Source of the DNA: Bdellovibrionota bacterium FG-1
GTDB lineage: Bacteria > Bdellovibrionota > UBA1018
Reading direction: 5' to 3'
DNA length: 15,362 nucleotides
NCBI GenBank assembly: GCA_051382295.1
Contig: JBBCAW010000024.1
Coordinates: forward strand, 1 to 15,362
Positions within the stretch are counted from its first letter, which is position 1. The number at the start of each line of letters is the position of its first letter. The translations under genes were made by a program, and so were the position numbers. Positions 1 to 15,362 of the stretch are shown here, one piece after another. The notes below the pieces were generated by a model, which searched no databases, was not told the origin of the DNA, and worked only from the letters and a program-made list of their open reading frames with translations.

Positions 1-1
1 C

Positions 2-106
2 CCCAAGGGTGTCAAGATCGCGGATTCAGAAATGAAAGCCCTGCGCATGGACCTCCATCCAAATTTACCCAAATGGAACTACACCATCCGTCCTCAAAAA
101 ATGTGA
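2..106 (+). CDS. ISAzo13-family DDE transposase, C-terminal fragment (5' partial)
   Basis: Manual translation of frame 2: PKGVKIADSEMKALRMDLHPNLPKWNYTIRPQKM*. This matches the recalled ISAzo13 C-terminal signature YPKG(I/V)K(V/I)xDxEM...WNYTIxP. Not in the ORF track. Confidence 0.85.
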   Translation, partial: PKGVKIADSEMKALRMDLHPNLPKWNYTIRPQKM

Positions 107-129
107 AGTTATTGTTGGGCGGCCCCTTA
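107..129. mobile_element. Probable right terminal inverted repeat of the ISAzo13-family IS plus a 3-bp target (TTA, 127..129)
   Basis: AGTTATTGTTGGGCGGCCCC-TTA lies immediately after the transposase stop and resembles the ends of this family. The left IR is outside the window, so the boundary cannot be confirmed. Confidence 0.55.
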
Positions 130-167
130 TCTGCGGGGGCAGCAGCTACGGTGGCGGAGGAATTTGA
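129..167 (+). pseudogene. C-terminal remnant (ICGGSSYGGGGI*) of a gene interrupted by the IS; candidate RiPP precursor core
   Basis: ATC TGC GGG GGC AGC AGC TAC GGT GGC GGA GGA ATT TGA. The stop overlaps the TTG start of the next gene (TTGA), the same coupling seen at 8850..8853. Confidence 0.45.
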
Positions 168-1231
168 GCTTGGCTCATTGGGCTGACCTCCATAATTTTG
201 GTCAGCAAGTGAAGCGATTTGCGCGGGCTTCTGGGACATTTTACCAGAAGCCCCGCACGCTATTTTGGGAATGGCTATTTTTTGGAACGACGAGCCCGCT
301 ACATGCGTACCTGGACCGGCTCGACGTCCCCAATCTCACGGGCTGGTACGGCCTTGAAATCGAGTCGATGGGCCCGGATTTTTGCGGCGAGGCAAGAGAA
401 GTGATCGACGACCCTGCGGGTGTAGCGGACAATGAGGCGGCGCTTGAAAACTTTGGCGCGCTCCTGGGATATTGCTACGCCTTCGGGATTCGGGATCTGC
501 ACCGCTTTAATTTGGTGCGTGGGCCGAACGGGCTTCAAGTCATCGACGCCGAGGTGGTCTTCACGCGGCTGTTGCTCCCCAAGGAAACCCTCCTCCTCCC
601 GTTCAAGGACACGCCGTTTAGCGAGTGTGGGTTGAGCCTTTTGCTCGACAGCGAGGATCAGCTCACAACCTCAAGGGTTCAAGCTATTTTGCGAGGGTAT
701 TGCGAATCGCTCACGCTTCTCGGAACTCATGCCCCCGAACTTTTAGAAATCATCGAGCGCGAGCTAAGCCAAGCGCCCGAAATTCCGGTTCGTCACATTT
801 TGCGCGATACGCGACGCTACTTTGAATGGGAGAAAAGAAAAACGGAGGAAGAGTATTTACCAGAGGAGCTAGCGCAACTTGAGCGAGGTGATATCCCTTA
901 TTTTTTCAAATTTCTGGGTCGCCCGGAGCTTTGGTTTTACACCTCTCCCAAGGGTGATCGCGACCCTGTGACCGTTCCTGCGAAGCTTTGGGATGGCGTC
1001 GAGCGCGATGCTAGTCCTGCGGGTATCCTTCTTGATCGTAAACGCCTTCTGAGTCAACTATTGCCCGTTGGGGTTCTGTATTTGGCTCGAACCCTGCTCC
1101 CCAAAGATTGGGTGGGGAATTTACCGCTGGGTCGGGACCAGGCGCTCGGTTGTACTGAGAATCGTCTGGAGCTATCGGTGGGCCCGCTTAGATTTGGTTC
1201 AGCTCGGCATCGGGGCACTCCTCAGAGCTGA
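164..1231 (+). CDS. Stand-alone LanM-type dehydratase/kinase domain protein (DUF4135), no LanC cyclase domain
   Basis: Class II lanthipeptide synthetase motifs in the right order: ADLHNFGQQV (cf. GDxHxxGxxV), YQKPR, FGALLGYCYAFGIRDLHRFNL (cf. DLHxEN), IDAE, RHILRDT, EELAQLERGDIPYF. SD-like GGAGGA at 156..161 lies very close to the TTG. Confidence 0.85.
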   Translation: MSLAHWADLHNFGQQVKRFARASGTFYQKPRTLFWEWLFFGTTSPLHAYLDRLDVPNLTGWYGLEIESMGPDFCGEAREVIDDPAGVADNEAALENFGALLGYCYAFGIRDLHRFNLVRGPNGLQVIDAEVVFTRLLLPKETLLLPFKDTPFSECGLSLLLDSEDQLTTSRVQAILRGYCESLTLLGTHAPELLEIIERELSQAPEIPVRHILRDTRRYFEWEKRKTEEEYLPEELAQLERGDIPYFFKFLGRPELWFYTSPKGDRDPVTVPAKLWDGVERDASPAGILLDRKRLLSQLLPVGVLYLARTLLPKDWVGNLPLGRDQALGCTENRLELSVGPLRFGSARHRGTPQS

Positions 1232-1234
1232 ACT

Positions 1235-1519
1235 TTAAGCCACCCGAAGGGTAACCATTAGGCCAAGATTTTGAGCAATATCGATCAGCCTGTCTGTCGA
1301 GATATGGGTCGTATTACCATTCAGAATCGCTGTAATGACGGTTCTCCCTACCCCTGCGCGTTTGGCTGCCTCGACATGGGTCAGATGTTTTTTTTCAACA
1401 GTTTTCCTGATTGCAATAGCGAGGTTAGTTCGCATCTCAATTTTGGTGGCTTGGCCCTTTGGAAGCTTGAGGACCTTCGCTAGGTCTTTCATGTTTTTTG
1501 CTTCAGTATAGTTTTTCAT
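1235..1519 (-). CDS. higA: XRE/HTH antitoxin (HigA-like)
   Basis: HTH LTHVEAAKRAGVGRTVITAILNG...ISTDRLI. Lies downstream of a RelE-type toxin with a 4-bp overlap (toxin-first order). Confidence 0.85.
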   Translation of the reverse strand: MKNYTEAKNMKDLAKVLKLPKGQATKIEMRTNLAIAIRKTVEKKHLTHVEAAKRAGVGRTVITAILNGNTTHISTDRLIDIAQNLGLMVTLRVA

Positions 1520-1836
1520 GCCATTTCTCCTAATCTTCTTTGGCCCGTCTGAATTTCGATTTTAGGTGTTTCTCGGGTTTTCTTTTTAAAAGCATGGAAC
1601 ACCAAAACCGCGTCTCGGAACTTAACAAAATAAAAAATTCGATATTGTCCGGCAGCGTTTTTTACCCGAAGCTCATGTGCGCCTTGCGCAATGCTCGGCA
1701 TAGGGCGACTCGCTGGCATTCCTAATGATTCACCCTTGGCGATCAAGGCCAACAATTCCATTATGTCGGCTCGGGTAAATACGTCAATACCTTCAAGTTC
1801 TTTTTCGACTTTCTTGTGAAAACGGATCGGCTTCAT
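1516..1836 (-). CDS. higB: RelE/ParE-superfamily toxin (HigB / phage Gp49-like)
   Basis: SRPMPSIAQGAHELRVKNAAGQYRIFY...VLVFHAFKKKTRETP is the typical Gp49-like HigB pattern. SD GAGG upstream. Confidence 0.9.
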   Translation of the reverse strand: MKPIRFHKKVEKELEGIDVFTRADIMELLALIAKGESLGMPASRPMPSIAQGAHELRVKNAAGQYRIFYFVKFRDAVLVFHAFKKKTRETPKIEIQTGQRRLGEMA

Positions 1837-1966: not shown

Positions 1967-2115
1967 TTTTCCAAAACCACTCATTTTCACTTATCTCAAT
2001 TCGCGAACTAATTCGTGCGTTTGGCCGCTTGGCACGAGTGCGTCGTTTTCTTGCACATAGAGAGGTGTAGGGACGCTCAATCACGAGAGTCTCAAGACAA
2101 CAGGAGAAGTGGAAA

Positions 2116-2286
2116 GTGAGATACGAAAATGGTTTTCATAACTGCCCTAGGTGTGGCGACCAGAGCATGGATCGACTCAGCACCTACTATTACTGCGCCG
2201 CCTGCAATTTTAGCTCAGAGGACCTAAACCCGCCTGAGCCAATCATTCCGAAGTGGGCATTCGACTTTTTAAAGGTGCGCTTATGA
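2116..2286 (+). CDS. Small zinc-ribbon protein (56 aa), first gene of the transfer operon
   Basis: Manual translation: MRYENGFHNCPRCGDQSMDRLSTYYYCAACNFSSEDLNPPEPIIPKWAFDFLKVRL*. It has CxxC-x13-CxxC, SD AGGAG at 2102..2106, and an ATGA overlap with the next ORF. Below the ORF-track size cutoff. Confidence 0.75.
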   Translation: MRYENGFHNCPRCGDQSMDRLSTYYYCAACNFSSEDLNPPEPIIPKWAFDFLKVRL

Positions 2287-2791: not shown

Positions 2792-2974
2792 ATGTGCCAT
2801 GAATGTATGCCGTCCGCAGGATGGTACCAGGCGATTCAAAAGAAATGTGGCTGTTGCGGGTGGCGACTCCATGAAGCCTGCAACGATGTCGAAATGTGCT
2901 TCTACTGCGACTGGATCGAATCCGATGGCCAGCGCGAGCAGCGAATCAAACGAAAAAACAAAAGGGGTTACTAA
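2792..2974 (+). CDS. Small Cys-rich putative zinc-binding protein (60 aa)
   Basis: CHEC, CGCC, C and CFYC motifs with a basic tail. SD-like GGGGGTGG upstream. Confidence 0.5.
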   Translation: MCHECMPSAGWYQAIQKKCGCCGWRLHEACNDVEMCFYCDWIESDGQREQRIKRKNKRGY

Positions 2975-3092
2975 AAGCAACGATAACAAGAGGTTTTATA
3001 GGGATTTTGAGGCCATCAAAGAATGGCTCAGAGAATTACGAATCGAAAAAATTGAACGAAGGAGACACCAACGCAAATCAGTCAATGAGTGA
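2925..3092 (+). CDS. Small charged hypothetical protein (55 aa; start uncertain)
   Basis: 3' part of ORF 2712..3092. Amphipathic FYRDFEAIKEWLRELRIEKIE. The stop overlaps the pilin start by 8 bp, but the ORF also overlaps 2792..2974 by 50 bp. Confidence 0.35.
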   Translation: MASASSESNEKTKGVTKSNDNKRFYRDFEAIKEWLRELRIEKIERRRHQRKSVNE

Positions 3093-3414
3093 AAATAATC
3101 GAGTTCAGGGTCTAGCCATCTCACGCTTGCTCACGCAAGCCGTGGGGGTGGTCGGCCTCAGTCTGATCCCCCTAATGGCCGGAACCAATCCGGCATTTGC
3201 AGGGATCGAAAGCATGATGGGCAATCTTCAGTCCGCCATCTTAAACGTCTTGGCTCCCATGATCTGTGTGGGTGGGATTATCTTCGCAGGATTTAAGCTC
3301 GCCATGGGGGATGAGTCGGCCAAACGAATGCTCTTTTGGAGCTGCGTCGGGACCGTCATCACCTTTACCGCGCCCTCGATCTTGTCCTTCCTGCAAACGC
3401 GGGTGGCATCATGA
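3085..3414 (+). CDS. Conjugative pilin, VirB2/TrbC family
   Basis: Long leader ending PAFA|G followed by two hydrophobic helices split by a charged loop (KLAMGDESAKR). Lies upstream of virB3/virB4. Start reassigned to ATG 3085. Confidence 0.8.
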   Translation: MSENNRVQGLAISRLLTQAVGVVGLSLIPLMAGTNPAFAGIESMMGNLQSAILNVLAPMICVGGIIFAGFKLAMGDESAKRMLFWSCVGTVITFTAPSILSFLQTRVAS

Positions 3415-3701
3415 TGAAGGATATAAGGGAAACAGCGGATTTAGCGGGGTTTCTTATTTGCCTCTGTCTGGGCTTTACCTTTTCGTTTGAGGTCATGATC
3501 CCGACTCTTCGGGATATCCAGGTGGAGATGATGAAATACCTGTTTGGCGTGGGCTTAGGATTTGGCCTGGGTGTTTGCTTTTATCTGATCTGGGTCCCGA
3601 TCCAGCATCTCATTGGCATAGCCCTTGAGAAGTTCGGAGCATTCTTGGACTCGCGCGGAAAAAAGCCAGGCAAAGGCAAGGAGGAGGGCTCCGATGAGTA
3701 A
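3411..3701 (+). CDS. Hypothetical 2-TM membrane protein (96 aa)
   Basis: ATGA-coupled to the pilin gene. Two hydrophobic segments and a charged tail. Confidence 0.65.
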   Translation: MMKDIRETADLAGFLICLCLGFTFSFEVMIPTLRDIQVEMMKYLFGVGLGFGLGVCFYLIWVPIQHLIGIALEKFGAFLDSRGKKPGKGKEEGSDE

Positions 3702-4005
3702 TGCGCAAGGTCTCAGTTATCCAGTGGCTAGAACTCTGGATGAACCCCCGCGAATCCTGGGGCTCTCGCCCACCGAGCTTGCGGCGTCAGCCTTGTTTTA
3801 CGCGATTCTCAGTCCAGTTTTGAGGGGGGTGCCGTATTCGGCGCTCCTCTCCTTGGTTCTGAGCGCGGGACTCACGGTGACGCTTTTGATTTTGGGACGA
3901 ACCTATCCGCCCAATCATGGGCTGTTTTGGGGGCTCAGGATGGTTCGGCCCGGTGTCACGTGGGTGAGCCCCATTCAAGAGGAGGTGTATCGCAATGCAC
4001 GCTAA
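3694..4005 (+). CDS. VirB3 / F-type TraL-like inner-membrane protein
   Basis: YPVARTLDEPPRILGLSPTEL is TraL-like. Two TM segments, SD AGGAGGAGG, directly before virB4. Confidence 0.75.
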   Translation: MSNAQGLSYPVARTLDEPPRILGLSPTELAASALFYAILSPVLRGVPYSALLSLVLSAGLTVTLLILGRTYPPNHGLFWGLRMVRPGVTWVSPIQEEVYRNAR

Positions 4006-6499
4006 TGGAAACTTGAAAGAAGCAAAAACCCTTTCGGATCTACTCCCATATTTGGGGGTAGATCCCATTGATGGGGGCCTGTGCCTCAAAGATGGGAGCG
4101 TGACTCGAAGCTTTCGGCTCGTTCCCAAGTCCTGCCTGACGGCGACTGAAGCGGATTTGGAGGGGCTTCGTTCCTCGCTTATTCGTGCTCTTTCGTCGCT
4201 GCCGGAAGGGGTAATTGCCCAGGTATGGATGAGCCGTAGTCAACCGTCAGGGTTAAATTCCCAGGCGATTGTGAATTGGAACCAGAGCCATCAACCAGAC
4301 GGTAAGGCCACGCCTTGCGGTCGGCAGAAGCTCTTTGAGGCTAGGCAGGCTCTTACAAGATCTTGCGAAGACGGAGGTACGGTATTTCAAACGGAAATTT
4401 TCGTCACTCTCCGCGTCTCGCCCGAAATCAAGGCGCAGCCCCTGGCAAGAATGGGCGCGTTTGCGCATTTGGCGTTTTGGCACAAAGCTGGAAAAGCAAA
4501 AAGCGTTCAGGACAAAACGCCAAGAACCATCGTGCAAGAGTTGAACGCAGCGGCGGAAGGCTTTCTCATGGGGCTTGAATCCGCTGGGATTGAGGCCTCA
4601 CCCCTTTTAGAAGTAGAGCAGGCGGCGCGAATCGCTGCCTTCTTTAATCCTGACCGTGAGGTTGAAGTCCTGGGGGAGGAAGAGGTCGTGGTCCACCGTC
4701 AGAATCTTTCAGAACGGGTCACGCTCACCGATCTGATTGAATCCAAGTCAGGGCTTGCACTCGGAAAAACCCGCATTCGTATCGGGACTCTTAAAAGTTT
4801 ACCAGAAAGTACGGTCCCGGCGCTGATGCACATTTTATCGGGCCAGCGCGTTTCGTTTGATGCCGTGGTGACCATCATGGTCTTGCCCCAGGTTCCCGAA
4901 CGGGAGCGACTGTCTCGAAAACAACGGCTCGCGCAGGGAATGGCCTCCGGCAACCAAGTCAGAAATCTTTATGCTGAAGGCCAGCTCCAAGAGATTGAGA
5001 ACACGCTGGGCGCAATGATTGGTCGGGGGGAGCGCCTCGTGGTCGCATCATTCCACCTCATTACGAGAGAACGGGGTGAAGTCGCACGTGGTGAGCTTGA
5101 TATTTTGCTAGATGAGGGGGCGCGTCTGGGACCCGGCTGTCAGTGGTTTGAGGAAACCGTCGGTGCGTATCCCGTCTTTTTTGGAATCTTGCCATTTGCG
5201 CCAACTTTTATTACCCGGCCTAAACGCATTCTCACCCCGGCGCTTACGGATTTATTGCCGCTTTATGGGTCCGGGCCCGGCCACGTTGAGGCATCGGTGC
5301 TTTTTGAAACGCTCGATCAGGGGATCATGGGGTATTCGCTCTTTGAGAAGTCCCCCAGTGGTAACGCGATTTTAATTGGCTCGACAGGATCGGGCAAAAG
5401 CACGCTTGCGTGCGGTCTGATCCTCGGAATGAACGCGGGCGGATCGAGTGCCGCGCCATCGAGTTTTGTCATCGACGTGGGTAATAGCTTTAGGCGCTCG
5501 CTTTTGTATTTGGGTGGAACGTCGCTAGATCTTTCGCCGGAAAACGGTACCGTGATTAACCCGTTTGATTTACCAGTGGGAGAAAAGTACCCAAATCCCG
5601 AGAAGGTCAAATTTCTTACGGCTTTTTTTGATGAGATTCTGGGCGACTGCGGCTCCCTCACCAAACTGGAGCGTGCGCTTTTAGAGGGTGAAATCTTTGT
5701 CTTTTACCGAAAAGACGAACCACCCACTTTAAGCCGGTTCAAAGCCCATTTAGAAAGCGCCGATCACCCAGATCTAAAACGACTCGCGAAACTTTTGATC
5801 CTGTGGTGCAAGCCCCAGCCCTATGGGCTCTTATTTGACGGGACAACAAACGTTACACTGGACGGCCCGCACCTACATTTTGAACTCAAAGGCTGCCAGC
5901 GATACCCAGATTTACTTCGGGTCGCCATGCTCGTGGTGATGGATCTGATTTGGCGCGAGGTCCGTGCGCGGTTTCCTAAACGCTCTTTGGTTGTGGTCGA
6001 TGAGGCGCACACGCTGATTCGGCCCTCATCCGATGGACGCGCGAACGGAGCCGCGCGCTGGGTGGAGGATGGCTTTAGACAGATGCGTAAATTTTCGAGC
6101 GCCGCGATTGCCATTTCGCAGACCGCAAAAGACCTTAAAAGTCCCGAGATTGGGGATGGGATTTTGGCCAATGCACCCAATCGCTTCATTTTACGCCAGC
6201 GCGGGGACGAGGTCACACTAAGGGAGGATCTCAAGCTCAATGAGCGGGAACTTGCCGAAGTGTTTGCACTTTCTCAGGTGCGTGGTGAGTTTTCGGAGTT
6301 TTTCCTCCACTCCGAGTCCATCAAGGGGACGTTTCGTTATCGGCCCACCCCGCTTGAGCTGTGGTTATCGACCACCCACCCACCCGACCTATCCGCACTC
6401 AAGGAAGCAGAAAACCAGCATCCCGAGTGGTCGCTCATCGAGCTGATGGATTACTTGGCTACAAAATACCCCGAAGGGGCAGAAGGGAGAATGGTATGA
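3995..6499 (+). CDS. virB4: VirB4/TraC-family T4SS ATPase
   Basis: 834 aa. Walker A GSTGSGKS, IDVGNSF, INPFD, Walker B VVVDEAH, RQMRKF...ISQ. SD GAGGAGG. Confidence 0.93.
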   Translation: MHANGNLKEAKTLSDLLPYLGVDPIDGGLCLKDGSVTRSFRLVPKSCLTATEADLEGLRSSLIRALSSLPEGVIAQVWMSRSQPSGLNSQAIVNWNQSHQPDGKATPCGRQKLFEARQALTRSCEDGGTVFQTEIFVTLRVSPEIKAQPLARMGAFAHLAFWHKAGKAKSVQDKTPRTIVQELNAAAEGFLMGLESAGIEASPLLEVEQAARIAAFFNPDREVEVLGEEEVVVHRQNLSERVTLTDLIESKSGLALGKTRIRIGTLKSLPESTVPALMHILSGQRVSFDAVVTIMVLPQVPERERLSRKQRLAQGMASGNQVRNLYAEGQLQEIENTLGAMIGRGERLVVASFHLITRERGEVARGELDILLDEGARLGPGCQWFEETVGAYPVFFGILPFAPTFITRPKRILTPALTDLLPLYGSGPGHVEASVLFETLDQGIMGYSLFEKSPSGNAILIGSTGSGKSTLACGLILGMNAGGSSAAPSSFVIDVGNSFRRSLLYLGGTSLDLSPENGTVINPFDLPVGEKYPNPEKVKFLTAFFDEILGDCGSLTKLERALLEGEIFVFYRKDEPPTLSRFKAHLESADHPDLKRLAKLLILWCKPQPYGLLFDGTTNVTLDGPHLHFELKGCQRYPDLLRVAMLVVMDLIWREVRARFPKRSLVVVDEAHTLIRPSSDGRANGAARWVEDGFRQMRKFSSAAIAISQTAKDLKSPEIGDGILANAPNRFILRQRGDEVTLREDLKLNERELAEVFALSQVRGEFSEFFLHSESIKGTFRYRPTPLELWLSTTHPPDLSALKEAENQHPEWSLIELMDYLATKYPEGAEGRMV

Positions 6500-7218
6500 A
6501 ATTTGAAAAAATTCGAAAATATTTTGAATGGTTTTCGATTGGCGCGATTACTTTTTTGATCGTAAGCCTCTCGGTCCCTAAGCGGGCTTACTGCCTATTT
6601 GGTGAGGAAATTCCCTTCCTAATCCAGATTATTACGCAGGCGATTCAACAGGTTCAGGAGCTTCAAAGCATTATCGGTACGGGCCGTGAAACGCTGGGAG
6701 TTCTCGAAGAAATGAATCGTGGGGTGAGGGACGTATTAAGGCTTGCCGACACCGCCCACCTCACTCTTCCGAGCCAGGTCTATAGTGACGCCGCTCAGAT
6801 TGATTCGGCCACTCGAAAGGCGGGGTTGCTTTACGGCGGCCTTTCAGATCACTCGCCGCTTTACGCTCGCACTCATTATCAAAGCGGGGTCGAGGGCTTA
6901 TTTTTGAGTGAAGATGCGTTTCAGTATTCTACTCAGCTTGATCGACAAGGAAACCAAATCAAAAATGCGGCAGTCGTCTCAAACCAGGCCACCGCAACCC
7001 GGCTCACCGCCGAAACGCTGGGGGTGATCCTCCATGCGGTCAACCACCAAAGCCGCCTTGAGGCCAAGCAACTGGAAATTCAGTCCACCCGTCACATCGA
7101 GGAGGCCGCCAAGGAAGATTCGCGCTTGGAGTCCTTCGAACAAACTCACGACGCGATTCAAAAAGACATGAGCGACGCCCAGTTTTCGTCGCTCAACTCA
7201 TATGGCCAGCATGAATAA
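6496..7218 (+). CDS. Secreted helical T4SS protein, VirB5/TrbJ-like
   Basis: ATGA-coupled start at 6496. Signal peptide ending AYC|L, Gln-rich coiled-coil, position between virB4 and virB6. Confidence 0.6.
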   Translation: MKFEKIRKYFEWFSIGAITFLIVSLSVPKRAYCLFGEEIPFLIQIITQAIQQVQELQSIIGTGRETLGVLEEMNRGVRDVLRLADTAHLTLPSQVYSDAAQIDSATRKAGLLYGGLSDHSPLYARTHYQSGVEGLFLSEDAFQYSTQLDRQGNQIKNAAVVSNQATATRLTAETLGVILHAVNHQSRLEAKQLEIQSTRHIEEAAKEDSRLESFEQTHDAIQKDMSDAQFSSLNSYGQHE

Positions 7219-7328
7219 GCTGATGGTCACTCAGAAAGGATTTTCAAAATACTTACATCAATACTACCGATAATTTAAGAAATACCTCGATAGCTCTTTT
7301 CCAGGTCAGCCAAGGGCTGTTTTGGAAC

Positions 7329-8255
7329 ATGCTGCCTTCGGCGTTTTTGTTCGCGATGTTCCTGATTTATGCCAAAGGGGAGATTTCGGGAGCCAAGCTC
7401 GAATCTTTATTTCGAAGGCTGATTGTCGCGATCGCTCTGCTTGTGGCGTTTCCGGAGATTTCTGGTGCGGCCACCGGCTTAGAAATGTATCTCGTGGCTG
7501 CGTTTGGCGGCGAAGCATCCCTGGCCCAAGTCTTTGGCCATGTCGCCACACGGGCTCACGAAATGGCCGGGGCTGGTGGGAGCAACTGGCTCAAGGTGGG
7601 CCAAATCGGGCTCACCCTGATTGCCACTCTTTCATTTTTGATTCTGTCCGTCGTAAGGCATTTTTTGGATGTTCTGCACCTGACTACCTGGAATTTGCTT
7701 CATGTCTTGGGGCCTATTTCTCTGATTGGCTGCCTTTTTGACTCTTGGCAACAGGTGCCCAAGGGGATCTTTGCCGGAATGCTTGAGCTATCGCTCTGGA
7801 AACCCGTTTGGGTGATTTTGGCCCGAATCCTGATTGCGATTGGGTTTGGCGAATCGCCCGCCGATCCGTCGCAGTGGTTTGATACGGCGGTGATGAACTT
7901 CGCCGTGGCAGGATTGATTGCGACCACGCCGCTCATCGTTCATGGGATCTTAAGCGGGACGCTTGCCTCCATCGGGAGCAGTGTTCTTCAGACAGGACTT
8001 GCTGGAACCGGAGCGTTCTTAGCAACCGCACCGATGCGGACGATTCAAGGCGGAATTTCCAAAGGCCGCCACGTGGTTCAAATGGCAGGAGGCCGCGCAT
8101 TATCGCGAATGATGCCCACGCGGCCACAGAACGGCCCACATCCGACATCAGGGGCTCCAAAACACCAACAACCCACTCGAAGTAACGGTCCTGGGGGTGG
8201 CGCAAATCGCCCCCCTATGCAGCCCAATTCGAGTCTAAACAAAGGAAAATACTAA
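7329..8255 (+). CDS. VirB6/TrbL-like polytopic membrane protein (start uncertain)
   Basis: Five or more hydrophobic segments, LLHVLGPISLI core, Gly/Ala- then Pro/Gln-rich C-tail. The frame is open back to 7224. Confidence 0.75.
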   Translation: MLPSAFLFAMFLIYAKGEISGAKLESLFRRLIVAIALLVAFPEISGAATGLEMYLVAAFGGEASLAQVFGHVATRAHEMAGAGGSNWLKVGQIGLTLIATLSFLILSVVRHFLDVLHLTTWNLLHVLGPISLIGCLFDSWQQVPKGIFAGMLELSLWKPVWVILARILIAIGFGESPADPSQWFDTAVMNFAVAGLIATTPLIVHGILSGTLASIGSSVLQTGLAGTGAFLATAPMRTIQGGISKGRHVVQMAGGRALSRMMPTRPQNGPHPTSGAPKHQQPTRSNGPGGGANRPPMQPNSSLNKGKY

Positions 8256-8259
8256 TTTT

Positions 8260-8853
8260 ATGGATTATTTAAAACCCATTGAACAACTGAAATCTCGAAT
8301 CAAATTCAATCAAAGCGTGATCTTTAGCCTCCTCGTCCTGATTGGAGTGCTTTTGGTCGTCGTCCCTCACGTTTTAAAAGGAGAACCCTATCTTGTAGAA
8401 GCCGTGGACGGGCTTCCTCAGATTTTAAAATCCGAACCTTGGCGGCTCAGTACGAGTCGGATAAGGGGATTTTCTCGGGCCTATCTGGAAGCCCGTTTTC
8501 ATTGGTCACCCGAAAGCATGGGTCAAGCCCGAAGTCGGTTTGAACCCCTCACAACCGAGGCCGTCTTTGCCAAACTCAAGGATTCACTCTCAGTCAATGA
8601 GGCGATTGCTCAAAATCAAAAGGCCGAGAGCTTTTACATCATCGAGCGTGAAACGTACTCCAAAGCCATGGACGGGGCCGAGTTACAAATCACCCGAGTT
8701 TTGAGAATTCGCAACGTCGGGATCGCCACACCGCTGATCATCAAACTGACGATCCAAGCCGCCCCCATCACGGATCAAAACCCCTATGGCTTTGTCGTGT
8801 CTGGGCTTGAAGAAGAGGAGGCTCACGAGGCCACCGAGGGGGAAAAGCATTGA
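8260..8853 (+). CDS. VirB8 / TraE-like bitopic protein
   Basis: N-terminal TM. C-terminal TDQNPYGFVV matches the VirB8 NPxG motif. Confidence 0.75.
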   Translation: MDYLKPIEQLKSRIKFNQSVIFSLLVLIGVLLVVVPHVLKGEPYLVEAVDGLPQILKSEPWRLSTSRIRGFSRAYLEARFHWSPESMGQARSRFEPLTTEAVFAKLKDSLSVNEAIAQNQKAESFYIIERETYSKAMDGAELQITRVLRIRNVGIATPLIIKLTIQAAPITDQNPYGFVVSGLEEEEAHEATEGEKH

Positions 8854-9548
8854 ACCCAATTCACGTCTTTACCTGGATGGTGGCTCTTCTTGCATTTGCC
8901 CCGCTCAGTCAAGCAGGGCAGGTGCGCAAGATTGAACTCACGGAAGATCATCCGGCAACGGTGACGCTAGCGCTGGGGCGTTCAACTGCGATTTCGTTTT
9001 TGTCCCGACCGGAAAAAGTAGTTCCAGGATCACCCCAAGCCATTCAGATCAATTTTGTGGGCAGTGACCTTACCGTCACGCCAGTTAGTCGTAAGCCCGG
9101 CAATCTGCTCGTTTACACGAAGTCAGCTCGCTACGTGATCCTGTTTGTGATTGGGGGTGATTCTCACTATGACGATGTGGTGAAGGTGGGAACCATGGGC
9201 CGGGGGCACCCGCTTCGGCTCCTCACTGACTCATTCCGTTTGGTGAGCTTCAAAGTGGTAGCAAAATCGCAGGCTGGCGAGCCGATTGGCGGCATACCGA
9301 GGGAACTTACCCTGCGTCTCATGACCAATGAGCGCGAAATATCGGGCCCGGACCTCGATGAGCTTTGGGGTCTGCCAGGCGTCATGACCGGCGCATCCAA
9401 GACCAAACTCCATTGTGAGGGGTGCCTGGTTCGAATCAATCTTCGAATCAATCAGGGAGGGATTCGAATCACCTGCATCAAACCCATCGAAAAGATTCAT
9501 TGTGAATCCAAGACGGTAGGCCTGGATTTGGAAAGGAGTGTCCCATGA
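8850..9548 (+). CDS. VirB9 / TraK-like secreted core-complex protein
   Basis: Signal peptide SQA|G, beta-rich N-domain (VTLALGRSTAISF...GNLLVYT), position between virB8- and virB10-like genes. Confidence 0.6.
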   Translation: MNPIHVFTWMVALLAFAPLSQAGQVRKIELTEDHPATVTLALGRSTAISFLSRPEKVVPGSPQAIQINFVGSDLTVTPVSRKPGNLLVYTKSARYVILFVIGGDSHYDDVVKVGTMGRGHPLRLLTDSFRLVSFKVVAKSQAGEPIGGIPRELTLRLMTNEREISGPDLDELWGLPGVMTGASKTKLHCEGCLVRINLRINQGGIRITCIKPIEKIHCESKTVGLDLERSVP

Positions 9549-10450
9549 GTGGCTCCGTACAAAATGACGGTTGGACCCAAAAACCTACGCTCAAAAGTAA
9601 TGGCACCCTGGCAATTCTGACCCTCATCGTGATGGCTTTCACCGGATTTAAATTAAGGCCATACTTGATTCATGCGCCCACAGTCCACGCCTACAACGGG
9701 ACGGAACAAACTCAGCAACGCCACGCGGACGAGGCGGTAAAAAAGGACGGGAGCTTCTCGTTGGTTTCGTCGATGGCAGCGCTACGACAACTCAAATTGG
9801 GCACCGGTGCGCGTTCTTCGTTTCATCCTCACGTTAAAGTCATCGAAAGGCCGCTCATGGATGGACTCACGGTCACGATAAGCGCCACCCTTTCGCGGGG
9901 CGTTTCATCGCTTGAGCCTGATCCAAGTATTGAGGCGGTCCTGGGGGGCCTCATTCGTGCCGAGGAAACTCGCGAACTCGACGACAGCCCCCTACAAGGA
10001 GCTAAACTCGTGGGAATGGCCGTCCCCAATATGGATCTCAAGCGAATGGTTCTGAGATTTTCGGAACTCATCACCCGCGACGGTAGGAGTTACGCCATTC
10101 AGGCCACCGCAATCGACTCAGAAACTCAGACGCAAGGGGTCGCGGCAGAATACTCGTCCGGGCTTGGGTCACGCCTCGCAGGGGTAGGCATCAGCCGGGT
10201 CCTGACTGCCGGAGATCAGATTCTTATGGCCAAGCTCTTGCCGGACTCCGGCAGTGCTTCGGTCGCTCAACAGGCCAGTCATGAGGCCGCACGTCAAATG
10301 AACGACCAAGCGGCTAATGACATTAGTTTAGAAACCACACGCAACCTTCGGGAAACCAAGGCCGAGCTATCACTTGCAGCGGGAACTCCGCTCACGTTAC
10401 GCCTTCGCGCCTTACCCGAACAAACTCAAAGGAGTGATTCCAGCAACTAA
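9545..10450 (+). CDS. VirB10/TrbI/TraB-like core-complex protein
   Basis: N-terminal TM. GAKLVG...KRMVLRFSELITRDG...GVAAEY...LAAGTPLTL pattern of TrbI beta-barrels. Confidence 0.75.
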   Translation: MSGSVQNDGWTQKPTLKSNGTLAILTLIVMAFTGFKLRPYLIHAPTVHAYNGTEQTQQRHADEAVKKDGSFSLVSSMAALRQLKLGTGARSSFHPHVKVIERPLMDGLTVTISATLSRGVSSLEPDPSIEAVLGGLIRAEETRELDDSPLQGAKLVGMAVPNMDLKRMVLRFSELITRDGRSYAIQATAIDSETQTQGVAAEYSSGLGSRLAGVGISRVLTAGDQILMAKLLPDSGSASVAQQASHEAARQMNDQAANDISLETTRNLRETKAELSLAAGTPLTLRLRALPEQTQRSDSSN

Positions 10451-10505
10451 ACCTAATCGTTTTAAAAACGTAAAACTGCTTGTCCGATATACCGGAGTGA
10501 CGGTC

Positions 10506-11810
10506 ATGCAGTTTTTTTCTAATCCGGAATATTTTTATATTTGGCTCATCGCAAGCTCGCTTGCCGTGGGCTATTTTGAAACCATCAACTATTGGTATTG
10601 GGCCGCCATCGGCGTGTTCAATCTATGTGTCGGAATCCTTGCCGTAGGCTCCGTCGTTCGGGTCGTAGACCGGGCGATGATGAGTCTAGGCCTTGGATTC
10701 GAGAAAACCGGCTACGGGCTCCCCACCTGGATCGTTAGGGGAGCCCGACCTTTCCAACAAGAAACTATTCGGGTTAAGTCGGCGGGATTTGCCGCATCCG
10801 ACTTTGAAAAACACCTCGATCAGATTTCTTCGCGCCTGTGTCTCCCAATTGAAACAGTACGAAAACTGTCGCCTGCCGTCCCAATCATCGAGTTTGTCAC
10901 CAAGAATGCACGGGCACCCAACACGTTGGATTACACGAGTCTCAAGCTCGAAGATCTCAAACCCGGAGAGTTCTATGTTGGCTTGGACGGGGTTAAAATG
11001 GTCAGAAAGTTCCTCGCTGATTTGCCGCACATGATTACTGCCGGGCAGACAGGATCAGGAAAGACAAACTTTATCCTGCAACTTCTCGTTACGATTTTAA
11101 GCCGAACTCCGTGGGCTCACATTTGCATGATTGACATGAAAGGGGGCGTAGACTTCCATGCCTTTAACGGTTTGGCCAATTTTGAAATGTTCATTAATCG
11201 CGAGGACGCCGCAAGTTGTATCCAGTCGATCGAAACAATATACGATGCACGCAACCTGTATTTACGGAAAAAAAAGTTGATCAACTGGAGCCTCCTTTCC
11301 ATAAAAGAGCTGTCCTCCGATCCCGCCATGAAAGGATTGCCCATTGGGCCGCTTCTTCTTGTATTTGACGAGCTTGCAGAGCTTTCTTGGAAAGCCAACA
11401 CTGCAAATCAGGGCGAAGAATTACAAGAACAACTGGCGTCGTTCACGCGTAAATGCCGCCACGCTGGAATCCACCTCGTTTTTGGGTGCCAACGGCCGGA
11501 CAAGAAGGTTCTGGGCATGCAGAGCAAGGATAACTGTCCTGCCCGTATTTGCTTTTCCGTTCCCTCCGTGGCCGCAAGTAATACGGTGCTCGGTAATATG
11601 ATGGCAACAACGCTTGGAGGGCATCGAGGGCGGGCCGTCTTTCAACTTGGGGATAATACTATTGTTCAAACACCCTATATTCGGACTGCCACGATCCAAG
11701 ACATGATGACGCAGGTGAAGGAGCGGATGACGCGCAATAAATATGATCGTCGCGTGGTTCAGCCGATTCAGATCACTCAAATCGCACAAGGCGGAGGGCA
11801 CCTAAGATGA
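10506..11810 (+). CDS. FtsK/SpoIIIE-family ATPase (TcpA-like candidate coupling protein / DNA translocase)
   Basis: Two N-terminal TMs, PHMITAGQTGSGKT, IDMKGGVDF, LLVFDELAEL, RHAGIHLVFGCQRP, GRAVF. Start set at ATG 10506 (SD GGAG). Confidence 0.88.
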   Translation: MQFFSNPEYFYIWLIASSLAVGYFETINYWYWAAIGVFNLCVGILAVGSVVRVVDRAMMSLGLGFEKTGYGLPTWIVRGARPFQQETIRVKSAGFAASDFEKHLDQISSRLCLPIETVRKLSPAVPIIEFVTKNARAPNTLDYTSLKLEDLKPGEFYVGLDGVKMVRKFLADLPHMITAGQTGSGKTNFILQLLVTILSRTPWAHICMIDMKGGVDFHAFNGLANFEMFINREDAASCIQSIETIYDARNLYLRKKKLINWSLLSIKELSSDPAMKGLPIGPLLLVFDELAELSWKANTANQGEELQEQLASFTRKCRHAGIHLVFGCQRPDKKVLGMQSKDNCPARICFSVPSVAASNTVLGNMMATTLGGHRGRAVFQLGDNTIVQTPYIRTATIQDMMTQVKERMTRNKYDRRVVQPIQITQIAQGGGHLR

Positions 11811-12670
11811 GAATACACACCACCTACCTACTTTATCAGGTGAGCCGATTTGGCGTTCTGAGGACTACTGAACTCGAATCCCTTTGCGCTGATAAATGTG
11901 GAAAGACCATTCTGTATGCCAATCTCAAAGAGCTGATTCAGCATAGGTATATCGAACGGTTTTGTCATCCTGAGATCTACCGAACCGCTTATCGAGCTAC
12001 CCCTATCGGCGTTAAATCGGCGTTTGGGCGTGACTCTGTCGAGCTACCCCGGTTTCGTGATTTGGAATCCAAACATGCCTTGCGTGTGGCCCAGACTTTG
12101 ATCAACCTGGCCCGATTCGAGAACGTTAGCGGTTTTGCAACAGCGCTGGAATTACCCGATGAATCAATGCGCAAATTTTCTCATCCAAAGGTCCCGGATG
12201 GGATCATTCAGTTATCACGAGGCAATGCCAGCTATGAGGTTGCCATTGAGGTAGAAGTAACACCAAAAACCAATCAAAGGTGTGATGACTTCTTGGACAA
12301 GTACCAGGAGGCGTTTCTTCATTCGTCCTATTGTAGTGGAGTGATCGTCGTTTGTGACGCGAACGATATCTATGATCGCTACTCGACTCATCTTGAAAAA
12401 CGAGACGAATCCTTCAAGGATCGGGTCCTGTTGATTCGAGGGCCTGGGCTCGAATCCCTGAATCCAGTAATCTACGGTACCCCCCGGAATAACCCCGGAA
12501 AATGCGGTGAATTACGCCGAAGTCATTTCGGGGCGGTAATCTCATATTTCCCAATAGTTTCCGCAAATCGAGACCAAAAAGCAGATTCTGTACCCCCACA
12601 AAATGGGGGGCAGTCAGAATTTTTGACAAATAAGGAGTTTTTGCAGCCAATCAGTCATTCAGGCACCTAG
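11807..12670 (+). CDS. Replication-relaxation (Replic_Relax)-like protein: winged HTH plus PD-(D/E)xK domain
   Basis: wHTH-like N-terminus (RFGVLRTTEL...LKELIQHRYI...YRATPIG), then HALRVAQ, KVPDGII, VAIEVEVTPKTNQR...KY. ATGA-coupled to the FtsK gene. Confidence 0.72.
   Translation: MRIHTTYLLYQVSRFGVLRTTELESLCADKCGKTILYANLKELIQHRYIERFCHPEIYRTAYRATPIGVKSAFGRDSVELPRFRDLESKHALRVAQTLINLARFENVSGFATALELPDESMRKFSHPKVPDGIIQLSRGNASYEVAIEVEVTPKTNQRCDDFLDKYQEAFLHSSYCSGVIVVCDANDIYDRYSTHLEKRDESFKDRVLLIRGPGLESLNPVIYGTPRNNPGKCGELRRSHFGAVISYFPIVSANRDQKADSVPPQNGGQSEFLTNKEFLQPISHSGT
12585..12620. repeat. Stem-loop within the 3' end of the Replic_Relax-like gene
   Basis: ATTCTG-TA-CCCCCA-CAAAA-TGGGGG-GCAGT-CAGAAT. 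Confidence 0.45.
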
Positions 12671-13383: not shown

Positions 13384-13587
13384 TTGACACCAGGACCCAA
13401 AAAGCTCATCGAACCAGAAATTAATTCGGCGAATTTACCGAAAAAAACGCCAGATTTTTCCATTTGGGAGAAAAAATATGGTAGAGAATTAAGTGAGTTG
13501 GAGAGAGTGGAAATTCGAGAAAACTGTTTAGGGTTAATGCGAATTTTAATCTCCGAACATCAAAGGGAGTCGAAATATCATGGCTGA
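13384..13587 (+). CDS. Small integrase-adjacent protein (candidate recombination directionality factor)
   Basis: WEKKYGRELSELERVEIRENCLGLMRILI. Overlaps the recombinase start by 8 bp. Start uncertain. Confidence 0.6.
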   Translation: MTPGPKKLIEPEINSANLPKKTPDFSIWEKKYGRELSELERVEIRENCLGLMRILISEHQRESKYHG

Positions 13588-15362
13588 ATTTCAGAAAATC
13601 AATGACCTCTCCCAATTCGCTTTGAGACGCAAATTTCAAGATACCGTGTTCATGCCGGAGACGAACTTCGCGGTAGCAATGGGCCGGGTCAGCGTGAAGA
13701 AAAACAAAGATTCCGGTAATTCGGACGTAGCCCAGCTTGAGACGATTGATGAGTACAGCCAAAAGGAAAAACTCACGATCATTCGGACCTGGGACGTATC
13801 CGAAACCGCATCGAAGCATGATAAGCGAAAACATTTTTTGGACATGATTGAGTCTGTCCGGGCGAGCCAGAACTCGGCTCGCCCCATTAAACATATTTTA
13901 TTCAGCCATCAGTCGCGCTCGAACCGCAACCGCGAGTCGGCTCGTGAGATCGAAGCTCTGGTCCGGTCGATTGGGGTCACGCTCCATTGTGCACGGGACC
14001 ATCTCAAACTGACGTCGCTCTCCACGCTTGAGGATTGGATGCGCTGGGATCTTTTCAACAATCTGAACGAGAAATTTATCAAGGACCATACCCGCAACGT
14101 CATGGACGGAACCTTTAAACGGGTCGAGATGGGCCTGCTCCCTGGCAAGGGTCCATATGGCTACCGGAACTACCGGGCCTCCGAGCGCGACACGAGTATT
14201 TTCCAACTTGTGGAGCCAGCGGCCACCTACATGAAGACGGCCTTCGAGTTGTTTTCAACCGGACGTTACACCGAAACCTCTCTTGAGGACGAACTGAAGC
14301 GCCGGTTTCCTGAGATTAAAAAGAAGGCTACGGCTAAGCGGCTTTCGGTGCTCTTGCGGAATCCATTTTACTACGGCGATTTTGATTATGGCGGCCAGAG
14401 GCACCAGGGAAATCCCGATTATCACCCTAGACTCGTGAGTCGCCAGATCTGGGACCGCGTTCAAGACGTATTGAATCAGCCTTCTAGGAGCCGCAAGGTT
14501 GTGAAGCATAAGCAACACCCTTATCTGGGGCTTTTACGATGCGGGGGGCTGCTATTGGATGCCGAGGGCAAGACCACCGAGCAATCCTGTGGGGCCGCAA
14601 TCACCGCCGAAGAGAAGCGCAAGAAGCTCAAGGACGGGACTATCAAGACCTTCTATTACTATCATTGTTCGCGCAACTCAGGACTTGCTGGCTGCTGCAA
14701 CCAAAGGGACAAAGGCTATATGGCATCCACTGGACGCAAGCGGTTGAACTTCAGTGAGTCGGAGATTGAGGCGCTGTTTGAGGTGATCGTCAAGCCGCTG
14801 TCGTTCACGCCCGAGGTCACCCAATGGATGCAAGAGGTCGTGCTCGACTCAAGCCAAGACAAAACCAAGATCCATGAAAGCCATCTCTCATCGCTTCAGT
14901 TTCAGTACCGGACCCTCGACCGCAAGATTTCCGCGATCTACGAAGACAAGATCAACGGCGTGATCGACACTGCGCTCTGGAAAACGACACACGACCGCCT
15001 TTCCGCTGAAAAGCGTACGGTGGAGAGCCAGTTGAGTGCTGTGAATGAGGAAAGAGGCGATTATCTGGAGAGAGGCGTGCTTCTCATCGAACTGGCGCAA
15101 GGTACTAGGAATGCTTACGGAAAAGCCACTTCGGAAAATAAGCGTAAAATCATTGAATTCGTTTCATCGAACCACGTTTTGGAGGGCGGAAGCTTCCGAT
15201 TTTCTTACAGAAAACCGTTCGATTTATTAGCTTCCGCCCCCTCAAAGGAAAAATGGTGGTCCCACCAAGAATCGAACTTGGAACTGATCTTTAGGAAAGA
15301 TCCGTTATATCCATTTAACTATGGGACCCCTGCCTCTGAACACAGCACCCCACCTATACTAC
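13580..15362 (+). CDS. Large serine recombinase / integrase (3' partial, at least 594 aa)
   Basis: Translated by hand from ATG 13580 with no stop to the window end. Catalytic AMGRVS (S38), SETAS, HQSRSNRN; recombinase domain GPYGY and LLRNPFYYG...HPRLVS...WDRVQ; Zn ribbon LRC...SCG...YYHC...CC; coiled coil. Confidence 0.93.
   Translation, partial: MAEFQKINDLSQFALRRKFQDTVFMPETNFAVAMGRVSVKKNKDSGNSDVAQLETIDEYSQKEKLTIIRTWDVSETASKHDKRKHFLDMIESVRASQNSARPIKHILFSHQSRSNRNRESAREIEALVRSIGVTLHCARDHLKLTSLSTLEDWMRWDLFNNLNEKFIKDHTRNVMDGTFKRVEMGLLPGKGPYGYRNYRASERDTSIFQLVEPAATYMKTAFELFSTGRYTETSLEDELKRRFPEIKKKATAKRLSVLLRNPFYYGDFDYGGQRHQGNPDYHPRLVSRQIWDRVQDVLNQPSRSRKVVKHKQHPYLGLLRCGGLLLDAEGKTTEQSCGAAITAEEKRKKLKDGTIKTFYYYHCSRNSGLAGCCNQRDKGYMASTGRKRLNFSESEIEALFEVIVKPLSFTPEVTQWMQEVVLDSSQDKTKIHESHLSSLQFQYRTLDRKISAIYEDKINGVIDTALWKTTHDRLSAEKRTVESQLSAVNEERGDYLERGVLLIELAQGTRNAYGKATSENKRKIIEFVSSNHVLEGGSFRFSYRKPFDLLASAPSKEKWWSHQESNLELIFRKDPLYPFNYGTPASEHSTPPIL
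15184..15239. repeat. 11-bp perfect inverted repeat just inside the tRNA 3' end
   Basis: GGGCGGAAGCT (15184..15194) and AGCTTCCGCCC (15229..15239). The left arm overlaps the palindrome CGGAAGCTTCCG (15187..15198). Confidence 0.6.
15254..15328 (-). tRNA. tRNA-Arg(CCT)
   Basis: Reverse complement GGTCCCATAGTTAAATGGATATAACGGATCTTTCCTAAAGATCAGTTCCAAGTTCGATTCTTGGTGGGACCACCA. 7-bp acceptor stem, anticodon arm GATCT-TTCCTAA-AGATC, T arm CCAAG-TTCGATT-CTTGG, encoded CCA. Confidence 0.97.

Follow-up and report, generated by a model that had tools for sequence, protein, structure and literature searches.

The mini-LanM gene and its domain content

The stretch of DNA considered here, 15,362 nucleotides from Bdellovibrionota bacterium FG-1 (assembly GCA_051382295.1, contig JBBCAW010000024.1, our contig C24) and referred to below as the window, begins with the right end of an insertion sequence (IS), continues with a small gene for a LanM-like enzyme and ends with the genes of an integrative conjugative element (ICE). 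The enzyme, which we call mini-LanM, is the subject of this report, together with the short precursor peptide and the conserved sensing and export genes that accompany its relatives. The features at this end of the window are:

1 to 126, forward strand: right end of an ISAzo13-family IS, with the last 34 transposase codons, their stop codon at 104-106 and the inverted repeat running to 126
127 to 129: three-base target duplication of the IS
129 to 167, forward strand, frame 3: putative 3' half of the precursor gene (12 codons and a stop), encoding Cys-Gly-Gly-Ser-Ser-Tyr and then a Gly run
170 to 1231, forward strand: mini-LanM kinase/dehydratase (DUF4135 only), 353 amino acids (355 from the TTG at 164)

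The original prediction described a 355-residue open reading frame (ORF) at 164-1231, and such a forward frame, opening with TTG, is present, though the TTG at 170, giving 353 residues, is the more likely start: the sequence GGAGG (156-160) lies 9 nt before 170 as against 3 nt before 164, and the protein-collection entry has 353 residues. Residue numbers (D8, H10, K29, D111 through T216) nevertheless follow the 355-residue form.

With respect to its domains, mini-LanM matches DUF4135 in Pfam (E 1.1e-14) and gives no Pfam match to LANC_like, as had been anticipated for a LanM domain lacking its cyclase. It scores 39.5 bits against the NCBIfam LanM model (TIGR03897, cut-off 304), and its nearest ESM Atlas clusters are DUF4135 families. 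A single-sequence search of the PDB gave one chance match only; a family profile was needed to reach CylM and LicM2. The protein thus has one half of what defines a class II LanM, a DUF4135 domain with kinase and elimination residues, and at 353 residues lacks the other, the fused LanC-like zinc cyclase that brings such enzymes to a total of about 900-1000 residues. It does have the features of a stand-alone LanM-type dehydratase: DUF4135 only, elimination residues kept and a precursor gene next to it.

An intact short family

Homologues were collected as the 120 best of 134 matches and the 150 best of 427 representatives (E ≤0.001), 246 proteins when combined, and the counts that follow hold among these listed matches. 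All are short (151-423 residues, median 345), with 221 of them between 300 and 400 residues. In the 227 homologues of at least 300 residues, D111, N116, D128, E130 and R210 are invariant; T216 is kept in 220 and replaced by Ser in the other 7; K29 is present in 224, H10 in 220, D8 in 215 and H113 in 205. In 201 of the 227 the D-x-H-N motif falls within the first 15 residues.

Such uniformity bears on the possibility that this gene is merely the remnant of a LanM cut by the IS, or else an enzyme for a protein target. The end of the IS does lie 37-43 nt upstream of the start, the reading frame stays open as far back as the IS, and a paralogue on contig C8 of the same genome is frameshifted. Against this stand the D-x-H-N motif at the same N-terminal place, the upper limit of 423 residues (a search of 8000 candidates of 619-2000 residues for longer fused relatives found none, which is a weak test) and the conservation of a dedicated precursor peptide upstream, which also leaves the earlier suggestion of a protein target without support. 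An IS-truncated LanM was rejected as a candidate since the homologues start at the same place, and we consider either form of this explanation to be scarcely credible. The original prediction, an intact, stripped-down Ser/Thr kinase-dehydratase domain without a cyclase, is thereby supported; it would have failed had the closest homologues all been full-length LanMs, and the contrary was found.

The related loci come nearly all from Bdellovibrionota, and the 32 of 401 genomes of this phylum with a mini-LanM match show a patchy, accessory spread. The family has probably been overlooked: DUF4135 mining as set out in the available text of PMC10676384 used a 500-residue minimum, which leaves it out, and precursors of 26 codons escape gene callers. 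At its margins there are distant forms of 550-590 residues (L096, L099, L119) with the same N-terminal start and about 200 additional C-terminal residues that have no family assignment; L099 and L119 have an upstream 57-59-residue peptide rich in Cys and Thr, and a glycosyltransferase-like neighbour. Another set of related short DUF4135 enzymes (L035, L071, L072, L074, L097) is found with precursors of 120-170 residues having long leaders and Gly/Ser tails, in surroundings that contain a 2OG-Fe(II) oxygenase and a large ABC transporter and from which the binding protein and kinase described below are absent.

Fold and catalytic residues

The AlphaFold2 model of mini-LanM, built with 120 aligned sequences, has a mean predicted local distance difference test score (pLDDT) of 94.7 and a predicted template-modelling score of 0.93. 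Its best structural match is CylM (Foldseek E 1e-8, Z 18.9, root-mean-square deviation 3.9 Å over 287 aligned residues, covering 247-694 of the CylM chain) and the second is LicM2 (Z 16.4, 3.8 Å, 286 aligned); thereafter come PI3K-like kinases at Z ≤10.6. The lipid-kinase-like fold is thus common to all three enzymes.

In a profile of the 120 homologues, D111, H113, N116 and D128 align with CylM D347, H349, N352 and D364, and R210 and T216 with R506 and T512, while the D8-x-H10...K29 stretch aligns with the corresponding stretch of LicM2. The roles of the CylM residues, including D252, H254 and K274, are given in the available text of PMC4550811, and all nine catalytic residues named there have mini-LanM counterparts, so that the correspondence first proposed for the phosphorylation and elimination sets holds. 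The spacings claimed with it (17 residues from Asp to Asp, 6 from Arg to Thr) are likewise correct. D128 and R210 are separated by 82 residues, compared with 142 in CylM, which is the 60-residue shortening that had been noticed between the DxE motif and the Arg; the roughly 240 missing N-terminal residues correspond well to a start about 245 residues into CylM.

According to PMC4550811, the CylM P-loop is 247-262 and its capping helices are 5-131 and 180-200. To judge by the superposition, mini-LanM begins at the P-loop, without the capping helices, the first half of the N-lobe, the LanC barrel or the zinc site, and has 353 residues where the CylM LanM domain has about 625. The available text of PMC4550811 also proposes that a three-stranded sheet within the CylM cyclase domain (Ile666-Leu690) binds the leader. 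Since the structural match reaches CylM 694, it apparently takes in this sheet, which seems to be kept in mini-LanM as judged by the range of the match and not by residue pairs. The statement that the enzyme has no cyclase stands with respect to LANC_like, with the qualification that this part of the cyclase domain is apparently present.

A conserved precursor peptide

A short ORF with a clear ribosome-binding site ends directly upstream of the enzyme gene in 67 of 76 testable loci, compared with 6 of 456 other genes used as a control. (The set comprised the 79 related loci and the C8 paralogue, less four that had no 5' end or upstream DNA; it was not dereplicated.) The 54 distinct precursors have 23-33 residues, beginning with an acidic leader of 15-20 residues with the motif I-x-L-x-x-(L/I)-E and ending typically in (F/Y)-x-x-G-x-S-S-x; the I, L, E and one Ser are nearly invariant. 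All 54 have Ser or Thr within the last 8 residues, and 42 have Ser-Ser within the last 6. The tails, of some 5-10 residues, are polar and often acidic, and they are very diverse, with 49 different versions of the last nine residues. Cys is found in only 10 of the 54 and at no conserved position, although the tail in the window has one. A lanthipeptide cluster would have a core with Cys as well as Ser/Thr, and here the Cys is not conserved. There is no LanC-type cyclase among the conserved neighbours; none was found in the genome either, by a search that was uninformative in that it also matched no control genome. Having no fused cyclase and no conserved Cys, the enzyme is not a LanM and its locus does not look like a lanthipeptide cluster.

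To model a complex, we chose the cognate pair of locus L069, whose precursor exceeds 30 residues and whose enzyme is 35% identical to that of the window. It scored 0.88, the best control 0.01; on a rough calibration that used our own alignments, 116 of 157 solved complexes attained the mark set for this score, as did 2 of 215 mismatched pairs. Separate runs had at least 88% contact agreement and a partner pLDDT of at least 74. In the model, leader residues 12-14 lie on the last enzyme strand (338-340) and the leader helix lies on 133-137 and 299-306, while precursor residues 22-32 are in contact with the catalytic loop and with the region of the Arg and Thr. The model supports binding of the precursor by its cognate mini-LanM and, all in all, the enzyme is almost certainly the dedicated maturase of this peptide.

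Would the enzyme dehydrate its substrate or merely phosphorylate it? In the latter case, the circuit proposed below would be the same, with a phosphoserine peptide as its signal, much as EmbM makes phospeptin. In CylM the KA domain with R506/T512 is held by capping helices (PMC4550811), which mini-LanM lacks; the C-lobe of mini-LanM is also 60 residues shorter, elimination at adjacent Ser-Ser close to a free C-terminus may be inefficient, and the cyclase-less EmbM does halt at the phosphate, as the consulted parts of PMC9505594 and PMC9259500 describe. However, EmbM is described there as being without the elimination residues, whereas among the 227 mini-LanM homologues 215 retain D8, 220 retain H10 and all 227 retain both R210 and T/S216, and the model is confident across both the P-loop and the R210/T216 region. 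Phosphorylation alone is accordingly unlikely in our view, and dehydration of the tail Ser/Thr, as the retained residues suggest, is very probable.

The apparently split precursor of FG-1

In this genome the precursor gene appears to have been cut in two by the IS. The transposase part in the window matches Pfam DDE_Tnp_ISAZ013 and NCBIfam ISAzo13. An identical 127 bp is found at the end of contig C35, and a whole copy of the IS on C13 has 83% identity. A related left end closes five contigs, with the three-base duplication common to three of them (C119, C2 and C72). At one of these ends (C119:8406-8474), adjoining the IS, are 23 leader codons that look like the 5' half of the precursor gene; this half matches the precursor profile (E 0.0027, one of two such matches in the genome), and the tail at 129-167 of the window is both in frame with it and in register with the family tail. 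The C119 end carries a sigma-54 response regulator, a major facilitator superfamily (MFS) transporter, a family-5 binding protein and a histidine kinase, and then the leader. We infer that C119 and C24 are joined via the IS inside the precursor gene. The circuit is probably mute in this assembly, because the IS splits the precursor and parts the enzyme gene from its promoter. The window accordingly holds no whole upstream peptide that could be co-expressed with the enzyme, as the original prediction had proposed. A look for sequencing runs that might reveal an IS-free allele or expression of the locus found none.

The paralogous mini-LanM (L081, C8:96056-94913, reverse strand) is split by a frameshift, and beside it are an intact 25-residue Thr-tailed precursor, an MFS gene, a binding protein and a kinase; both circuits of the assembly therefore look incapable of producing a signal of their own, although the window enzyme might act in trans on this precursor. 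The genome has several ISAzo13-like families at contig ends, and on C72 the left end of the present IS abuts the end of another ISAzo13-like element.

The sensing and export cassette

Clustering of the genes in the 79 related loci, three other stretches of this genome and the window, a set in which many loci are short or redundant, gave five major families: the enzyme (80 loci), the kinase (61), the binding protein (53), the MFS transporter (47) and the sigma-54 regulator (32). With the precursor gene these make up a conserved set of six. Binding protein and kinase are both present in 43 of the 53 distinct loci for which at least 4.8 kb of upstream sequence is available, and the MFS in 37. The gene order is not fixed: there are single operons, divergent arrangements, loci with the enzyme first and others with the MFS fused to the binding protein. 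The kinases that were examined have two hydrophobic helices flanking an outside domain of about 100 residues, and no ABC permease is found among the conserved neighbours. Over 31 loci the enzyme, the kinase, the binding protein and the MFS have correlated pairwise distances (Spearman 0.82-0.92).

In seven distant loci (L030, L087, L089, L090/L106, L092, L093, L105) the acidic motif and Ser/Thr tail end an ORF of 66-101 residues, the N-terminus of which is clearly hydrophobic in six (L093 is doubtful); the strict leader rule matched three of them. None of the seven has an MFS match, L030 having just 2.2 kb upstream. The distant loci with short precursors do have an MFS (L086, L088, L095, L104) or, in L101, a 380-residue membrane-like protein. 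The MFS thus accompanies short precursors and is absent from loci whose precursor carries a signal peptide of its own, a trade-off which suggests that export of the peptide is required. Inside the L089 and L105 cassettes, with their signal-peptide precursors and Pro-containing tails, there is also a prolyl oligopeptidase of family S9 (L089:10345-12450 and L105:8747-10870), a candidate processing or clearing protease.

Linked genes for a precursor, its maturation, export, a receptor and a regulator are what one expects of a peptide quorum-sensing system, and all are found here. It could be argued that the binding protein and kinase sense instead an outside peptide, from prey or the environment, and that the modified peptide is an output of the regulon acting elsewhere, for example intracellularly or on the mating apparatus. 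Family-5 proteins, after all, bind peptides generically, several binding protein-kinase pairs exist in this genome, and in the main layout the activator's promoter is followed by precursor and enzyme as it would be by any gene under regulation. Yet this clade of binding proteins is hardly found outside mini-LanM loci, with 22 of its 23 best matches in 401 genomes adjoining a mini-LanM gene (the C119 copy being counted via the proposed join); the linkage persists through at least three gene orders, including the divergent one and the MFS-binding protein fusion; and the MFS/signal-peptide switch implies that the peptide must be exported. An outside cue thus seems improbable, and the modified peptide is probably the ligand of the sensor to which it is linked.

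The conjugative element

Downstream of the enzyme gene the window contains the following features:

1235 to 1836, reverse strand: type II toxin-antitoxin-like pair (Pfam), Gp49/ParE-like at 1516-1836 and helix-turn-helix at 1235-1519
1929 to 1944 and 1950 to 1965: two copies, 21 nt apart, of the palindrome GTCTT-N6-AAGAC, each an exact match
2030 to 2055, forward strand: sigma-54-like boxes TGGCAC (2030-2035) and TTGCA (2051-2055), both seen again when the regions preceding the zinc-ribbon gene are aligned
2116 to 2286, forward strand: small zinc-ribbon gene (Pfam zinc ribbon, E 2.2e-5)
2896 to 10450, forward strand: type IV secretion/conjugation genes, homologues of which follow the enzyme gene in related loci
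2896 to 3414, forward strand: VirB2 pilin
3995 to 6499, forward strand: VirB4 ATPase
9545 to 10450, forward strand: TrbI-like protein; genes of no family assignment lie between these three
10374 to 11810, forward strand: FtsK/TraB-like coupling ATPase, below the NCBIfam curated cut-off
11807 to 12670, forward strand: MobC-like replication-relaxation protein, a weak match (E 8.5e-5) below the NCBIfam curated cut-off
13580 to 15361, forward strand: large serine recombinase (Pfam Recombinase and Resolvase), its frame running into the attachment site
15254 to 15328, reverse strand: tRNA-Arg(CCT), its 3' end being the integration site

These are the constituents of an ICE: a recombinase, a tRNA site, a VirB4-type secretion system, a coupling protein and a weakly matching relaxase-like protein. 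The recombinase frame extends across the tRNA gene, which has the opposite orientation; this tRNA is the sole match of an Rfam scan of the window. Positions 15248-15362 are identical to C52:19977-20091, an empty attachment site, and the assembly of both occupied and empty sites points to a mixed population or to excision. A left attachment site was looked for and not found. The toxin-antitoxin-like pair, an insertion that separates the enzyme gene from the transfer operon, is not conserved in the related loci, in the sense that it is absent from the families found in at least three of them. In related elements the zinc-ribbon gene stands at the head of the conjugation region (it forms family F7, present in 9 loci, and its upstream motif was found in 14 regions). 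Conjugation genes are near the cassette in 14 of the 23 loci with at least 5 kb downstream.

Probable regulatory sites shared by cassette and transfer operon

A GG-N10-GC site is located 57-85 nt before the regulator's receiver motif in all 18 distinct testable promoter regions, a set that left out 6 partial loci. Scored against the sigma-54 consensus, 13 of the 18 have at most two mismatches (0.16 expected) and the other 5, including that of C119, have three. Sigma-54 itself is encoded in this genome. A 16-bp palindrome precedes the cassette site by 100-110 nt in 12 of the 18 (0.46 expected), and it is found again before the zinc-ribbon gene of the conjugation region in 12 of 17 regions (1.8 expected; 26 sites in all as against 1.9), often in tandem at 20-21 nt; these ratios overstate the case, the pattern having been picked after both sets of regions were viewed and the loci being kin. 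In all five loci that have both regions, the locus's own palindrome is the best or tied for best. The two palindromes of the window are two of only four exact copies in the 4.4-Mb genome, and C119 has a copy with two mismatches 110 nt before its cassette site. The window palindromes are probable binding sites of the cassette's sigma-54 activator. The boxes at 2030-2055 may similarly constitute a sigma-54-type promoter, although their GG and GC are 20 nt apart rather than the canonical 10, one helical turn too far. No canonical site was found between the divergent MFS and precursor genes. In related elements, a conserved purine-rich stretch follows the TTGCA box (window 2030-2090) and could form a 5' hairpin by pairing with a complementary sequence further downstream.

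The original prediction regarded the enzyme gene as ICE cargo. It is on an integrated conjugative element, but the notion of plain cargo is not supported, the gene being the last member of a conserved export and sensing cassette; moreover, the activator's apparent binding sites precede the transfer operon of the element itself.

The proposed circuit

On balance, and with moderate confidence, we favor the view that these genes make up a dehydro-peptide quorum-sensing circuit in a Gram-negative phylum, self-regulating and often governing an ICE. The precursor (23-35 residues, with the leader I-x-L-x-x-(L/I)-E) would bind the C-terminal sheet and helices of the enzyme. Because the full CylM residue set is kept, the tail Ser/Thr would be phosphorylated with ATP and the phosphate then eliminated, leaving a linear dehydroalanine/dehydrobutyrine peptide with no enzymatic ring. 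This would leave the cell via the MFS or, where the precursor carries its own signal peptide, via Sec. The orphan family-5 binding protein, whose gene is linked to that of the kinase, would capture the peptide and act on the periplasmic domain of the two-helix histidine kinase, which would set the phosphorylation of an NtrC-type activator. The activator would bind the palindrome that precedes its own sigma-54 promoter and, in conjugative elements, the one that precedes the transfer operon. Transfer, or some other output, would thus be tied to how dense the cells with the same element are. The variation of the tails would yield element-specific signals.

A peptide made in this manner might instead be antagonistic, like a microcin or bacteriocin, with the MFS and binding protein serving for export and self-protection and the two-component system for autoregulation in lantibiotic style. 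Dehydroalanine is electrophilic, and the patchy distribution (32 of 401 genomes) would suit such a role. Lanthipeptide clusters are often beside mobile and defense genes according to PMC12715929, which in general terms ties those of class II to genes for genetic exchange, and the antimicrobial hominicin needs a cyclase-less LanM domain (PMC12749797). Nevertheless, the short, polar and often acidic tails, the absence of both tailoring enzymes and a dedicated immunity gene among the conserved neighbors, the recurrence of the palindrome before the transfer operon and the occurrence of the same sensor chassis with unrelated maturases all make an antagonistic role distinctly unlikely.

A number of observations weigh against the quorum-sensing circuit itself, among them the inflated palindrome ratios and the box spacing mentioned above. 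No canonical sigma-54 site was found within 900 nt after the enzyme gene in any of 52 cases. The binding protein, the kinase or both are missing from 10 of the 53 loci, mostly distant ones, and several have other peptide contexts; a close binding protein in genome G223 has no mini-LanM beside it, and binding protein-kinase pairs are common in the FG-1 genome with other enzymes. The distance correlations indicate co-inheritance only, not interaction, and there is no peptidase among the conserved neighbors. Nine of the 23 loci have no conjugation genes, and transfer is therefore not the sole output of the circuit. Finally, both copies in this genome look broken (the IS in one precursor, the frameshift in the C8 enzyme), and the C119-C24 join is itself inferred, two other contigs sharing the three-base duplication and the IS body being outside the assembly.

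Relationship to known systems

Cyclase-less LanM-type enzymes have been described before. In the available text of the respective papers, PoyF acts on the polytheonamide precursor (PMC9505594), HomMD/LanMD on hominicin (PMC12749797) and EmbM on phospeptin; like mini-LanM, these are stand-alone DUF4135 enzymes acting on the precursor of a RiPP (a peptide made by the ribosome and modified after translation) with no ring formed, and genes for a histidine kinase and a response regulator are present in the phospeptin cluster too. However, PoyF and HomMD are described as working among many tailoring enzymes, on NHLP or 65-residue precursors, toward cytotoxic or antimicrobial products, and EmbM as using a Nif11 leader and lacking the elimination residues; mini-LanM keeps these (D8/H10/R210/T216), and the leader of its precursor is an acidic motif of 15-20 residues. 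Mini-LanM is distinguished from all three as a sole maturase with a new leader and with a binding protein, kinase, MFS and sigma-54 activator as partners. Compared with CylM-type systems, its precursors are of 23-35 residues with Cys in just 10 of 54, and the main clade has neither a double-glycine leader nor a peptidase transporter.

As for the circuit, Agr, ComX and the NisRK system of nisin are Gram-positive peptide autoinducer circuits, and RapI-PhrI of ICEBs1, pCF10 and pLS20 are cases of peptide control of conjugation. In these too a ribosomal peptide with a variable core is modified or processed, exported and sensed, with feedback on its operon and on transfer. The mini-LanM circuit differs in its Gram-negative host, its probable periplasmic co-receptor, its output through a sigma-54 enhancer-binding protein, the predicted LanM-type dehydration and export by MFS or Sec. 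The LuxP-LuxQ-LuxO system of Vibrio likewise combines a periplasmic binding protein, a membrane kinase and a sigma-54 activator, but LuxP does not belong to the family-5 peptide binders, the signal AI-2 is a small metabolite and a relay, LuxU, takes part; furthermore, the mini-LanM cassette holds the genes for signal synthesis and export together on mobile DNA.

The same sensor chassis is found with other enzymes. On contig C120 of this genome (L146, 3747-9368) a short YcaO (353 residues) accompanies a family-5 binding protein, a histidine kinase and a sigma-54 regulator, together with a 55-residue ORF with a hydrophobic N-terminus and a Gly/Thr/Cys tail. This appears to be a sister circuit, differing in its YcaO chemistry, its signal-peptide precursor and its lack of an MFS. 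(A YcaO search of the 401 genomes was dominated by 730-residue proteins.) Binding protein-kinase pairs also occur beside a YcaO and a 92-residue signal-peptide-like ORF (L147, C54), beside a 287-residue YcaO-looking protein without a Pfam match (L148, C21) and beside a B12 radical SAM and an M19 dipeptidase (L149, C10), while L150 (C62) has an MFS-binding protein fusion, a kinase and a double methyltransferase. In L151 (C19) and L120-L132, from many genomes, the binding protein, kinase and sigma-54 regulator are found with an alpha/beta hydrolase and an ICMT/PEMT-like methyltransferase, often with an 85-117-residue signal-peptide-like ORF having a Gly-Pro/Pro-Gly-type tail, and several are beside VirB2/3/4 genes; the signal of this variant is possibly a methylated peptide.

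A broader interpretation, which we put forward tentatively and would not yet bet on, is that the Bdellovibrionota have a family of modified-peptide quorum-sensing circuits, of a kind that the literature searched does not report from Gram-negative bacteria, built on one chassis with interchangeable chemistries (mini-LanM, YcaO, B12 radical SAM, methyltransferases), each mobile element having a private channel that decides conjugation. As part of this same tentative interpretation, mini-LanM would be a compact, near-minimal LanM catalytic core with a built-in sheet for leader binding and would define a new class of linear dehydro-peptide RiPPs with a new leader.

Significance

The literature we searched, the scope of which did not extend to supplementary RiPP-mining tables, contained no account of the mini-LanM cassette. 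What is new here is the leader family, the compact enzyme and an architecture not previously described; the logic of the circuit and cyclase-less LanM domains were already known. A compact LanM core with a short leader would help in studying how leaders are recognized and how elimination proceeds, and could serve to install dehydroalanine; the parts of the cassette are all small and expressible in E. coli. Peptide quorum sensing, especially with modified-peptide signals, is a textbook Gram-positive trait. If the proposed circuit is correct, a Gram-negative predatory phylum has a complete cassette to make, export, sense and respond to a dehydrated peptide, which would bring within direct experimental reach the questions of whether RiPPs serve as density signals in diderm bacteria and of how the mobile elements of the Bdellovibrionota time their transfer.

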